The translations under genes and the position numbers were made by a program. The notes below the pieces were generated by a model, which had not been told where the DNA came from, did no database searches, and worked only from the letters and a program-made list of their open reading frames with translations. This document shows, piece after piece, positions 40,397-45,062 of a stretch of DNA of 64,000 bases; within the stretch, counting starts at the first letter, position 1, and the number at the start of each line of letters is the position of its first letter. The stretch covers positions 12,337 through 76,336 of the forward strand of contig CAWDSQ010000036.1 in assembly GCA_963804955.1 (NCBI GenBank). Reading direction: 5' to 3'. Origin of the DNA: an uncultured delta proteobacterium. Lineage in GTDB: Bacteria; Desulfobacterota; WTBG01; CAIYCZ01; CAIRTM01.

Positions 40397-40789
40397 AGGC
40401 ACTTCATAGCACAATCCGGGATCAACAGAAAGCCATAACAGAGGGTATCCGTTTTGATTTTTTGTGAGGATCAGCAGGGGGATAGTTTCCAGCCAGAAAA
40501 CGGCGGTCCGGCAACCGGCCTGTAAATTTTTCAAGCCCTTCTCTGGATTTTTTTTAGATATAATTTGACGTGCAGCCGGAATTCAATCTAGAATTACCTG
40601 TAGAGCCTCCTGCTTTGCTGGAGGTGCGGTGACTTTGGCCAGCCACTCATTCAGGTCATGGCCTGGTATCTGTCATGAAGCAAGATACGCAGGAACCTTT
40701 TTTTATGGCATGCAACAAATTACTATAATCAATTATTCATGTGTTGGCGAGCAACAGAGACCTTCGTCATTCCCCTATGTTAAAAGTCA

Positions 40790-41050
40790 AGGGGCACCGA
40801 GAATGAAAGCATTGTTTTTTTCTTGGCTAATAAAGATCACATAACCATATATGCAAGGAACAATCCCTAAAACAATCTCCTATAAGCAGACAGGCCAGCC
40901 AAAGGCAAGAGCCGCTGCATTATCCGCATCATGTTTTAAAGGTGTGGGCCCGCAGTCTGGCTTGGAGCAGACGGGTTAAACCGCTGCAGGAATGACTCAG
41001 CGCTGCCCACAGAAAGAATATAATGGTGATTGTCCTTGTCCTTTGTTTTC
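40790..41050 (-). ncRNA. Predicted bridge/seekRNA (ends approximate); target-binding loop at 40944-41010
   Basis: Stem GUGGGC/GCCCAC enclosing GUCAUUC and CAAGCCAGA, which match both arms of the insertion target. Confidence 0.75.
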
Positions 41051-41059
41051 GGGGTTCAG

Positions 41060-42130
41060 TTATTCAACGATAGCCACAATATAGGGTTGCCGGTTGTTTA
41101 AAACAAAGCGTATTCGGTTCAAAAGTTTCCGGGCAATATGGATGATGGCGTTGTTCTTTTTCAGCCTCCGACACAGCTTATTAAAAGCCAGGGTCAACGC
41201 CGGGTCCTTGCGTACGGCAACCCAGGAGCTCTCCACCAGAATAGCCCGCAGCATCGGGTTGCGGCGCATGGTGATGTTGGTGATGTGTTCTTCTTCGCCG
41301 CTTGATTTTGTATCGGGGATAAGGCCGGCATAGCTTGCCAGCTTATCCAGATTTTTAAATCGGGAGATATCGCCGATTTCGGTTAGCAGTATCATTGCCG
41401 TTAGGGTGCTGATGCCGGGGATGGTTTTTAAAAGCCATACCGCTTCGACATAGTCGTAGGTTCGGGATAGCACAGTGATTTGCCGTGTTAACCCGGCAAT
41501 GAGCTTGCGCAGATGCAGCAGCTCTTCAATGAGGGTTGTCAAGGCTATGGTGCCGCTTGTGTGTTCAAACTGTACTGATTCAAGCCAGCTGATGAATCGA
41601 CGGGACCAGCGCTTTGTTTCCATTTCAGGAGGCAGAAAAACGCCATAAAAGGCCAGAAGTGAGGCAATCTGGTTCTTGCAGCGGGTCTGTTTGCGGACCA
41701 TGCCGTACCGGGTACGTAGCAAGCTGCGATCTTCACGCTGCATACTGCCGGGAATATAAATAGGCTGCAGGTCATGGCTTCTCAAGTTTTTACCCAATTT
41801 GCGGCTGTCGATTTTGTCATTTTTGCCGCGGCGCTGCTTGTCGGTCGTGGGAACATCGGCAGGGTTGACCACCATGGAGTCAACTCCCTGCTGATGAAGA
41901 CTATCATGAATCCAGTAGCCGCAAAAGCCTGCTTCGTAAGCAGCATGATACGAAGCGCCCGGGAACATGCGTTTGAGATAGCCCACAAGGCTCTGTGCAT
42001 TGGGCGGCTGTGTGAATGTTTTATGTTCATGATGTTCGGAAAAAATGCTCACGGTCCAGCTCTTTTTATGAACGTCCATGCCGACGTAGATGTTTTGCCC
42101 GGTAAAATCGGGCTGTACGGTTTGTTTCAT
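41060..42130 (-). CDS. IS110-family DEDD recombinase/transposase
   Basis: VGMDVHK, YEAG, KNDKID, IPGI, GLIPDTKSSG. Confidence 0.95.
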   Translation of the reverse strand: MKQTVQPDFTGQNIYVGMDVHKKSWTVSIFSEHHEHKTFTQPPNAQSLVGYLKRMFPGASYHAAYEAGFCGYWIHDSLHQQGVDSMVVNPADVPTTDKQRRGKNDKIDSRKLGKNLRSHDLQPIYIPGSMQREDRSLLRTRYGMVRKQTRCKNQIASLLAFYGVFLPPEMETKRWSRRFISWLESVQFEHTSGTIALTTLIEELLHLRKLIAGLTRQITVLSRTYDYVEAVWLLKTIPGISTLTAMILLTEIGDISRFKNLDKLASYAGLIPDTKSSGEEEHITNITMRRNPMLRAILVESSWVAVRKDPALTLAFNKLCRRLKKNNAIIHIARKLLNRIRFVLNNRQPYIVAIVE

Positions 42131-42368
42131 GGCAAGCCTCCTTTATGATGAGTACTACCATTTTACTGTAGCATTCTCAGTGTGGCTTGCTTCTTCTTTT
42201 AAACATAGGGTCTGGCTTGTCCGGAATCATTTTTCAGCATACCAAAAGGGATTCCCGTCAAGCGGGAATGACAAGAAATGCTGTCATACAGCTAACGTAT
42301 CCAACTGTTTTATGATTTTTGGTTACAAGATTTAGTTAAATGCTCTAACCGTGCAGAGGGGGAATCTT

Positions 42369-45062
42369 ATGAACGATGACGGCAAAAACAGGCGGCAGCT
42401 TCTGGAAGAGCTGGCGCTGCTGCGCGATAAAGTTGCAGAGCTTGAAGGCGCGGCGGGCGCCGCGCCCGGGGCTGGAATTAAAAATGCTTCCAAAAAAAGG
42501 AAAAGCCCCGCGTTCAAGCTTGACACGGCAGGAGTAAAAGCACCAGGTGAGATCGAGGCTCTCGTCCGGTTCTGTCTCGACAAAGTTCCTGACAGCGTAT
42601 GCCTCACGTCATCCGGAGGCAGAATCCTGTATGTCAATGCTCCTGCCGCAAAAAATCTGGGCTATGCCGTTGAAGAGCTGACAGGAAAATCCATGGCGGA
42701 GCTTGGCCCCAAAGCTCCCCGGGGCGCATGGAAAAAGCGGTGGTCTGAAATAAAGCAGAAGGGCTCATATTTTTTTGAAAGCCATCACATAAGAAAAGAC
42801 GGATCTGTATTACCCGTTGAAGTTATGGCAACCCATATTGCTTTCAGGGGCAGGGAGTATGGCTTTTTTCACGCCCAGGATATCAGCGGCCGCAAATCAA
42901 TAGAACAGGACCTGATAGACCAGAAAAATTTCTATGAAAAGATTCTTGAAACCGTCAATGACGGCATCTGGGTTACAAGCCCGCAGGATGTTATTATCTA
43001 TACCAATAAGGGAATGACAGGGATTTCCGGCATCCCCAAATCTAAAATTGAGGGTGTACATGTCCTCAACGGCTTCCCTGAAGAAACCATAACAAACTTC
43101 GGGCATTTTTACCGTGAGGCGCGAAAAACACTGCAGCCGGTGCAATATGAGGCATTTGTGGTGACGCCGTCAAACAGGGAAACCTGGCAGGCAGGCTGGC
43201 TGATACCGCTGGCGCATCAAGGCCGCTTTAACGGCATGATCTGCACCACACAGGATATTACTATCCAAAAGCAGACGGAGGATCAATACAGGACAATTCT
43301 TGAAACAACGCAGGACGGCTTCACCCTGCTGGATATGCAGGGCCGTCTTCTGGATGTGAACGATGCCTTCTGCGCTATGTCCGGATACAGGAGGGACGAG
43401 CTTTTGCGGATGCGCATCGGTGATATTGATGCGGCCCTGACGCCCCGGCAGATCAAAGGCATAATCAGCGAAGTAAAAAAAAGCGGAGGAACCTTTTTTG
43501 AAACAAGGCACCGGAGAAAAGATGGAAGTATTGTTGATGTGGAAATACGCTTATCGCACTTTGGCGCCGGAGAGGGAAGGATGGCCAGTCTGGCCCGCGA
43601 CATTACCGGGCGAAAGCGTATGGAGGATGAGCTGCGCCAGAGCGAAGCCGTGGCGCGCACGCTCCTGCATATACCCAGCACCGCCATGATGCTGCTTGAT
43701 ACAAAAGCCAGTTTTATTGAAGTCAATGAGACAATGACAAAGCGATTTTGCAGGACACGAGAAGAAATGAGGGGAATGTGCCTGTGGGACATCCTGCCGC
43801 CGCATGTCGCAGAGCTCAGGAAAGGATATTTTGCACAGGCTTTATCAACGGCTGAAATGGTGCGCTGGGAAGATGAGCGGCAGGGCATGTGGAACGACAA
43901 CTCCTTTATCCCGATTACCGATGAGCGCGGAAGATAGTGCAGGTAATAGGATTTGCCGTTGATATAACGGCAGGCAAGCGGGCTGAAATGCTCCTGAAAG
44001 AATCAGAGGAGCGGTACCGGCAAATATTTGAAACATGCGCCGAGGGGATTCTGGTGGCGATATTAAGACCAAGCGCTATACAATATGCAAATCCGGCAAT
44101 GTGCGGAATGCTTGGCTATACCCTTAAGGGGCTGCTGCAAAAGAGCCTGACTCCGCCATCCAACTTCGAAAATGTACAAGCTTTTGAAGAGGCAAAAAAA
44201 TATTTTGCAGAGATTGCCACGGGGAATACGATAACTGGCCGTGCCATCCCCTGCCGGCATAAGGACGGCTCTATTACTCTATGTGAATATAAGCGGCACA
44301 AAGATGAACATTGACGGCCGTGAATACAACGTGGGCTTTTTTACCGACATAACCGAGAGAAGAGCTGTTGAGCAGAAGCTGCAGAAAAGCGAAGAGCTGT
44401 TCAGGCAGACCTTTGAGCGTGCCCCTATCGGCATTGCCATTTTTGACAAAACGGGCACTGTCGTGAATGCGAACTCTTTTTTGTCAACCATTCTCGGTTA
44501 TGCAACGGATGCATTGAAAGAGCATGGTATTGATATGCATTTGCATGCAGAGGATAAGCAACGGAGCATCAAGGCTCTGCTGTCTTCCCTTGAAAAGCTC
44601 CGCGAGCATGCCGTGTGCGAGAAGCGCTATGTCGCCTGTGACGGTCATACGGTCTATGTAAAAGAATATACGCAGGGCATTTTCAGCACAGCGGATGATC
44701 TTGTGTTTCTGATTGTCCTGATTGAAGACATAACCACCCGCATGCAGGCTGAAAACCTCAATATAAATGTTATTACAAAGCTGAAGGATGTGTATAATGA
44801 GCTGCAAGACTTTTCCGCGATGCTGCCTGCGGAGCACAAATTTTCGAAACTTGTGTCCATTCATGATTACAATCTCTCCCCCATGGAGAACAGGGTGGCA
44901 TCATTGATCTATAACAGCTATTCGAATCAAAATATCGCATCAAAGCTCAATATTTCTGAAAATACGGTTAAGCATCACATAACAAGCATCTTCAGCAAAT
45001 TCAAAGTCAGAAACCGCCTTGAGTTTCTAAAAATTATCCGGGAAAAGCGGATAGTTATTTAG
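42369..45062 (+). CDS. Multi-PAS, LuxR-type HTH one-component regulator (frameshifts near 43930 and 44280)
   Basis: About six PAS/PAC units (RKDGS...VEV...DIT) and a C-terminal LSPMENRVA...SNQNIASKLNISENTVKHHITSIFSK; no kinase domain. Confidence 0.85.

Follow-up and report, generated by a model that had tools for sequence, protein, structure and literature searches.

A probable two-module guide RNA behind the recombinase gene of an IS1111-type insertion sequence in an uncultured delta proteobacterium

An insertion sequence of the IS110 family lies in the window, the 64,000-nucleotide stretch of DNA analysed here, and the question raised by this locus is whether the DNA behind its recombinase gene specifies an RNA that reads the element's own insertion site. 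The first-pass annotation had described a natural RNA-guided recombinase with a guide RNA 3' of the gene, aimed at a host repeat. This description stood in substance, while the core dinucleotide assigned to the system did not, and the order of the guides that it stressed is not new. The element is very probably an IS1111-type member of the IS110 family that combines a DEDD/serine recombinase with a two-module guide RNA (seekRNA or bridge RNA) of ~150 nt, as deduced from the sequences of the locus and of its relatives.

The major data for the recombinase were profile matches of the 356-aa ORF. These were PF01548 (E = 2.4e-15), PF02371 (E = 2.4e-22), and the NCBIfam model NF033542, "IS110 family RNA-guided transposase", which scored 207.6 bits against a cut-off of 140. 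The protein could be aligned with IS621 (chain 8wt6_A; E = 2.7e-8) in two pieces only, and in this alignment D11, E60, D102, D105, and S241/G242 of IS621 are matched by D, E, D, D, and SG, respectively. D11, E60, D102, D105, and S241 are the residues named as catalytic in IS621 (PMC11208158). The sequence AGLIPDTKSSG corresponds to the serine motif GL-P----SG described for IS110-family transposases (PMC11187229). The subterminal inverted repeats, CCTATGTT(T)AAAAG and CTTTTAACATAGG, agree at 13 bases with one 1-nt gap, within the 7 to 17 bp that characterize the IS1111 group, and the left repeat is inset from the left end by AGAC. Non-coding DNA amounts to 286 nt downstream of the gene (40774-41059) versus 83 nt upstream (42131-42213). 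Without gain or loss of a base, the flanks rejoin as an uninterrupted arm, CAAGCC/GGAATGAC, and the same was found for a family of relatives in a Nitrospirota genome (the L020 family). Protein identity to IS4321 and IS5075 was 24.1 to 24.6% over 95 to 96% of the length (tblastn), and the best plasmid-borne relatives reached at most 33%. On its sequence organization, rather than by phylogeny, the element is assigned to the IS1111 type of the IS110 family. It is taken to be a new, deep-branching member of a kind, the IS110/IS1111-type RNA-guided recombinases, that is already known.

Table 1. Positions of the insertion sequence, its predicted RNA modules, and the flanking host repeat in the window
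Feature	Coordinates	Strand	Sequence and remarks
Whole insertion sequence, 1440 bp	40774..42213	(-)	AGACCCTATG...AACATAGG, read without target duplication; placed from junctions, uninterrupted repeat copies, and the family rule for ends
Transposase/recombinase ORF, 356 aa, intact	41060..42130	(-)	PF01548 + PF02371, NF033542
Left subterminal inverted repeat region	42197..42210	(-)	CCCTATGTTTAAAAG; holds TATGTT (42202-42207), the -10-like half of the junction promoter
Right end	40774..40790	(-)	TTGACT (40785-40790, -35-like) and right inverted repeat CTTTTAACATAGG
RNA module 1, target-binding loop (predicted)	40944..41010	(-)	Outer stem GUGGGC/GCCCAC + CGC/GCG, two unpaired strands, inner hairpin 40967-40987
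5' loop strand of module 1 (T guide)	40988..40996	(-)	GUCAUUCC(U), complementary to right-flank top strand GGAATGAC
3' loop strand of module 1 (B guide)	40955..40964	(-)	CAAGCC-AG-AC; variable CAAGCC = left flank, AG-AC = first 4 nt of the insertion sequence
RNA module 2, probable donor-binding loop	40865..40942	(-)	Outer stem CCUUUAAAAC/GUUUUAGGG, hairpin GCAGC..GUCUGC, 3' strand AUAGGAG (40877-40883)
Left part of ~200-bp host repeat	42214..42351	(-)	Ends in hairpin arm ...GATTCCGGACAAGCC
Right part of host repeat	40708..40773	(-)	Starts GGAATGAC

Module 1 starts 50 nt past the stop (41060) of the ORF, and the minus strand at 40944-41010 reads GUGGGC AGCGCUGA GUCAUUC CUGCAGCGGUUUAACCCGUCUGCUC CAAGCCAGA CUGCGG GCCCAC, exactly as the first-pass annotation gave it. 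The two matches to the insertion site that it reported were also reproduced: at the left junction, the 9 nt to the left of CCCTATG are the same as CAAGCCAGA (40956-40964), and at the right junction GAATGAC has GUCAUUC (40990-40996) as its reverse complement. When the 287-nt non-coding region was shuffled by mononucleotides 200,000 times, with matches taken at any position, 733 shuffles contained any sense 9-mer of the 14-nt target, 25,072 contained any antisense 7-mer, and 101 contained the two together. The loop is a real observation, far beyond chance. When the RNA of the window was folded alone, the minimum free energy structure joined the two segments, AGUC (5' segment) pairing with GACU (3' segment), and the whole non-coding region folded no better than its shuffles (z = -0.97). 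Since this pairing between the guides is absent from the family consensus, the consensus of an alignment was used instead. A permissive search of 40500-42500 against Rfam 15, which may hold no bridge-RNA family, gave only two chance matches to lncRNAs (E about 6).

The relatives from which the consensus was derived were obtained by a scan of one genome per species, which found 83 of them in 77 loci with 38 to 98% protein identity. Their hosts were Thermodesulfobacteriota, Smithella/Syntrophaceae, Nitrospirota, Bacteroidales, Ignavibacteria, and Chitinophagaceae, and the regions behind their stop codons follow one evident common plan. Alignment of 27 distinct regions (alignment A1) gave an RNAalifold consensus with a two-part outer stem, an inner hairpin CUGCAG...UCUGC and a similar hairpin further on; another outer stem, CUUUAAAA/UUUUAAAG, was spotted by eye and added to this structure. 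In the consensus, both guide segments are unpaired, as had been proposed, and neither takes part in a conserved helix. Over the five helices of the full structure, 95.1% of the cells in the 27 RNAs are paired, compared to 36.8 to 46.8% with the partner columns slid. Compensatory change on both sides was observed in 15 of 30 pairs, and the covariation score was reached by none of 500 shuffles. The outer stem of module 1 co-varies, and the hairpin between the guide strands is conserved in all 27 RNAs. G-U pairs occur on the transcribed (minus) strand only, which points to an RNA rather than a DNA structure. The two modules have one build, consisting of an outer stem, a 5' strand, a hairpin, and a 3' strand.

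A covariance model (R1) built from this alignment gave 109 to 110 bits for both copies of the insertion sequence in the source genome and found the RNA inside these two copies only, with no orphan copies elsewhere in that genome. Among relatives with ~40% protein identity, the model reached L059 at 70.7 bits and L050 and L061 at 29 bits; the RNA regions of IS5075 and ISEc45 were not detected (best 5.8 bits, E = 1.8). Several relatives are rearranged in this region. L039 has a tandem partial copy, the non-coding region starting anew after the right end; the RNA of L037 ends abruptly just past AGACU, and in L030 the sequence behind the recombinase gene is unrelated. L015 has an altered module 2 and a second, weak R1 match (25 bits) 1.2 kb downstream.

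The site of insertion was defined from the flanks. Both are parts of a repeat of ~200 bp that occurs in some 15 to 25 places of the source genome, and in 7 uninterrupted copies the left- and right-flank alignments meet with a 2-base overlap. The repeat consists of two hairpins with arms that are near mirror images, GTCATTCC(C/G)GCTTG... and ...CAAGC(C/G)GGAATGAC. By exact count in the 4.26-Mb assembly, the arm CAAGCCGGAATGAC (CAAGCC-GG-AATGAC) is present in 19 copies and CAAGCGGGAATGAC in 14, where about 0.03 would be expected by chance. The flank alignments and the 19 exact uninterrupted arms uphold the assignment of the site to a host repeat family made in the first-pass annotation. The target that it reconstructed, CAAGCCA-GA-ATGAC (CAAGCCAGAATGAC, with A at position 7), is not the usual site, as it has one genomic copy versus the 19 of the G form. 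The host repeat may be REP/BIME-like or a miniature element. Its upstream hairpin, ATTCCCGCTTGACGGGAAT, followed by a T-rich run, is terminator-like. The same hairpin motif, GTCATTCCGGCTTGTCCGGAATC ... GATTCCGGACAAGCCGGAATGAC, is present in the Nitrospirota genome (L020-L034), which belongs to another phylum.

Across the families, the 3' strand of module 1 reads as the left flank followed by AG and 2 nt, and the 5' strand together with the following CU reads as the reverse complement of AG plus the right flank. In L016 the guide UAUUCGCG-AGAC faces the flank TATTCGCG-AGAC; in L035, L036, and L049 the guide UAACCU-AGAC faces TAACCT-AGAC and AUUUUAUGCU faces AGCATAAAAT; in L009 CUGUU-AGGU faces CTGTT-AGGT; and in L007 UAGUCCCCC faces GGGGGACTA. 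As an example for the 5' strand, the reverse complement of AUUUUAUGC matches the flank GCATAAAAT. The relation was quantified for the 18 of 22 guide families that had both flanks, using for each family the first listed copy with both. The mean longest common run with the family's own flank was 4.39 for the B (3') strand and 6.61 for the T (5') strand, compared to 2.64 and 3.15, respectively, with the flanks of other families. None of 20,000 permutations reached the observed match sum of 198 (maximum 153); since the families are related and several have the same type of target, this count is a strong indication rather than a true probability. Thus the guides co-vary with their flanking targets, a check that the first-pass annotation had proposed, and homologs in unrelated targets do not keep the same segments.

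These data also bear on the reading that the matches are not guides at all but a captured piece of the host repeat, or binding sites at the DNA level, with the protein choosing the target. The repeat arm GTCATTCC... and the T strand do have 8 nt in common, the subterminal inverted repeats could be protein sites, and the guide RNA is a prediction from DNA sequence. However, the matches are limited to two short strands of one loop, split by the hairpin that all 27 RNAs keep, and exactly these strands change in homologs inserted in unrelated targets. The G-U pairs fit the transcribed strand only, and for IS1111 relatives a requirement for the RNA was demonstrated experimentally (PMC11187229). This reading was deemed very improbable, and the two strands of module 1 are regarded as probable guides.

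The second module was interpreted from its 3' strand, which in all 27 RNAs opens with a copy of the final 5 nt of the right end and continues with AG. Three co-varying states were observed: AUAGG with a right end ...CATAGG (the window, L003, and L045), AUAAA with ...CATAAA (L042 and L044), and AUAGA with ...CATAGA (the other 22 RNAs). Since this strand equals the right-end/left-end junction of an excised circle, module 2 probably holds the donor; it is thus probably the donor-binding loop that completes a two-loop seekRNA or bridge RNA. By eye, no consistent match to a left-end guide (the reverse complement of AG+ACCCTATG) was found in the module 2 5' strand of the 27 RNAs; partial AAGG/CCTT matches occur in some families and none in the window, and this candidate was dropped. 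Neither the left end nor the right flank agreed consistently with the 2 to 3 nt after AG in the donor strand.

The circle junction predicted for the 1440-bp element reads TTGACT-N17-TATGTT. A strict sigma-70 rule was passed at this junction by 10 of 26 families, including that of the window, and since the promoter was found in these 10 only, it was not used as a feature of the family. No promoter-like site was found upstream of the recombinase gene in the linear form.

The following mechanism is proposed. The T and B strands of the module 1 internal loop would pair with both strands of the insertion site, and jointly they would place the element, in a single orientation, between CAAGCC and GGAATGAC on an arm of the host repeat hairpin. 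Module 2, having the same build and repeating the right end plus AG in its 3' strand, would probably hold the donor. As in ISEc11 and IS621, the RNA is inferred to be transcribed, to be bound by the recombinase, and to guide strand exchange.

The dinucleotide shared by the two junctions was deduced from bases that do not vary with the target. All 17 non-Bacteroidales RNAs have AGAC in the 3' strand, and all have it at the left junction, whatever the target; the 10 Bacteroidales RNAs have AGGC or AGGU in its place. In the B strand, AG is followed by AC, GC, or GU, and these 2 nt are the same as bases 3 and 4 of the left end in 25 of 26 cases, the exception being the decayed L045. Because AGAC is constant with any target, the A at target position 7 is deduced to be derived from the insertion sequence, and the shared dinucleotide to be AG. 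The first two bases of the right flank are AG in 19 of the 27 RNAs, GG in 7, and AA in 1 (the tandem partial copy), so that AG is common to the left and right junctions in 19 of 27, one base left of GA. The 1440-bp element has AG at its left and GG at its right junction, the uninterrupted targets have GG, and at the position of the A in its B strand, G is found in 19 of 20 uninterrupted targets. The simplest description is an element AGAC...ACATAG(G/A) inserted with no base gained or lost, in line with the description of IS1111 elements by the Hall laboratory as inserted without gain or loss of bases (PMC11187229). From these sequences, donor and target would usually share AG, and the 1440-bp element appears to tolerate or prefer a GG target.

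The L020 family showed the same at its junctions; its members, with a 59%-identical protein, were inserted 14 times into the same type of hairpin. Their 5' guide strand is the same as that of the window and their 3' strand differs; the latter, UUUAGCU, agrees with the flank in just 3 of its 7 positions. The left junctions read ...AGAC in 12 of 12 visible cases, and the right junctions read ACATAGA followed by GG(A/T)ATGAC in 13 of 14, L032 not being located by the search pattern. The five uninterrupted arms at these loci read ACAAGC(C/G)GGAATGAC.

The first-pass annotation had instead proposed the same system with a GA/TC core, a target CAAGCCA-GA-ATGAC split as 7-2-5, and an element CCCTATG...CATAGGG. 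GA is indeed found on both sides of the element in the window, the flanks overlap by exactly 2 bases in the 7 uninterrupted copies, and one genomic copy reads CAAGCCAGAATGAC. This version was nevertheless judged improbable and was set aside for the following reasons. The 19 uninterrupted arms that read CAAGCCGGAATGAC have G at position 7, whereas A is present at all left junctions seen, including the 12 visible ones of the L020 family with its A-less arms. The L035-like junctions, TAACCT-AGAC... and ...ACATAGA-AGCATAAAAT, share AG and not GA. Finally, the module 2 strand of the window reads AUAGG-AG-A, not AUAGGGGA, which favors A over G at the disputed base.

With AG as the shared dinucleotide, the register of the 1440-bp element is puzzling. 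In the register of the AG families, its two strands ask for the 15-nt site CAAGCC-AG-GAATGAC, of which there are no genomic copies. The real target, at 14 nt, is one base shorter than this site and fits each guide strand, but in differing registers, the T strand being one base out of register compared to the AG-target families. Insertion occurred where the 3' strand points in the window, L003, the L020 family, and L067, and where the 5' strand points in L048. Elements aimed at the repeat hairpin have AG at their left end and in both RNA loops, and AG on the left with GG on the right was present at every junction pair seen in the window, L003, at least 11 L020-family copies, L045, L048, and L067. 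It is conceivable, although rather doubtful, that crossover in this clade needs no core common to donor and target. If true, the crossover would be blunt or one base wide, or else a heteroduplex would be inherited strictly from one side, and either would depart from the 2-nt matched CT core of IS621. The bottom-strand guide might then include a "handshake"-type dinucleotide with which the left end of the element itself is read. The mismatch of AG with GG, like the one-base shift, is a natural experiment on the strictness of crossover in IS1111-type systems, the mechanism of which is less well known than that of IS621.

Whether the element may still be mobile was considered from its copies. The source genome has one intact copy and one truncated and broken copy, despite 19 perfect targets. 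The latter (G000 C26:94831-95970; L002/L080) is 93% identical, with a broken frame and the same kind of flank. It lacks everything from the left end to around codon 100, with the break precisely at the repeat arm (CAAGCC joined to TAG...), and its right junction has one G fewer than that of the window. Its RNA region is intact (110.3 bits); hairpin 1 is longer by one G-C pair, and the stretch ahead of the 3' guide is shorter by one base. These counts, together with the lack of a promoter-like site upstream of the gene in the linear form, would suit a real guide RNA in a dead relic, immobile in the source genome and unusable as it stands as an orthologue. This alternative was considered unlikely, as the ORF is intact and its catalytic residues align, and the predicted circle junction forms TTGACT-N17-TATGTT. 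Furthermore, L003, which is from another genome, is a 98%-identical copy that occupies a different hairpin of this type, and a 1473-nt contig from a metagenome DNA run, 96% identical, spans the element end to end; both speak for recent mobility. A low copy number is also to be expected if expression depends on circle formation (PMC13626964).

Expression was looked at in assembled contigs of public runs, where parts that are not covered carry no meaning. A 226-nt contig of a relative in metatranscriptome run X18, with 10 differences, covers 40934-41130, with DNA carry-over possible. It contains the end of the gene and module 1 and then jumps to 40806, skipping the 127 nt (40807-40933) with module 2. 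This form without module 2, in a relative 90 to 95% alike, may represent a short variant that occurs naturally, or else an artefact of assembly. The RNA-library runs X18 and X19 both hold pieces of a relative, those in X19 being pieces of the gene, and indicate presence only. In DNA run X2, a thinly supported joint (depth 2, 31-nt side) passes over 1787 nt and has 118 other letters in their place; it may be the empty locus in a relative.

The 1440-bp element reveals no new kind of system. It is a cleanly readable natural example of what is probably RNA-guided recombination, with both loops, from a lineage far from the characterized elements, and a reasonable candidate orthologue for bridge RNA or seekRNA engineering. 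Its retargeted relatives in Thermodesulfobacteriota, Nitrospirota, Bacteroidales, and other groups make up a table of guides and targets, and R1 is a model with which more can be found.

Among the closest known systems are the IS1111 seekRNA elements ISEc11, ISPa11, ISKpn4, and ISPst6 (Siddiquee et al. 2024, PMC11187229), in which, as described there, the guide RNA also lies 3' of the transposase gene; for ISEc11 and ISPa11 the likeness was drawn from their descriptions rather than from sequence alignment. In common with the elements of that report, the 1440-bp element has subterminal inverted repeats and is inserted in one orientation, without added bases, into a specific and often repeated target. 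Natural retargeting among relatives is likewise common to those elements and to this clade. In the seekRNAs the segment matched to the top strand is reported to lie 5' of that matched to the bottom strand, the reverse of the order in IS110-type elements (PMC11187229), and the RNA of the window has its top-strand-complementary segment 5' of the bottom-strand-complementary one in the same way. The first-pass annotation was thus correct in placing the right guide 5' of the left guide, but this is the published IS1111 arrangement and not a new one. The guide matches of IS1111 seekRNAs are described as overlapping, and the seekRNA as reprogrammable if the donor flanks are changed too, with a short form of ~82 nt sufficing (PMC11187229). 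Module 1 is ~70 nt and both modules are ~150 nt (about 153), compared to ~82 and ~154 nt for the short and long seekRNAs, respectively. Unlike in those IS1111 elements, the constant AGAC of the B strand reads the element's own left end, and the classic IS1111 members IS4321 and IS5075 have only about 24 to 25% protein identity to the 1440-bp element.

RNA-guided recombination of the IS110 type was described in 2024 for IS621 and its two-loop bridge RNA (Durrant et al., PMC11208160), and for 93% of IS1111 elements the same report placed a predicted bridge RNA in the right end. As described for IS621 (PMC11208160; Hiraizumi et al. 2024, PMC11208158), the predicted RNA of the window has one internal loop for the target and another probably for the donor; each would pair with both strands of the DNA, with overlap between the pairings at the crossover. 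Both elements have a DEDD plus serine recombinase, a repetitive palindromic host target, and a promoter formed at the circle junction, which is here a prediction. They differ in the position of the RNA, which is 5' of the gene in IS621 and 3' in the 1440-bp element, and in the order of the strands within the loop, which is reversed. The core of IS621 is CT and must be shared, whereas here the shared dinucleotide is AG, with GG in the target of the 1440-bp element. The left-donor guide of IS621 would have its counterpart in the module 2 3' strand; a right-donor guide is part of the IS621 bridge RNA, and none is readable in the RNA of the window. A further likeness, by description, is to ISPpu9 of Pseudomonas putida (PMC12288879), an IS110-family element that lies in repetitive extragenic palindromes and has a small-RNA gene downstream; extra orphan copies of that RNA gene are reported for ISPpu9, whereas in the source genome the RNA is confined to the two copies of the insertion sequence.
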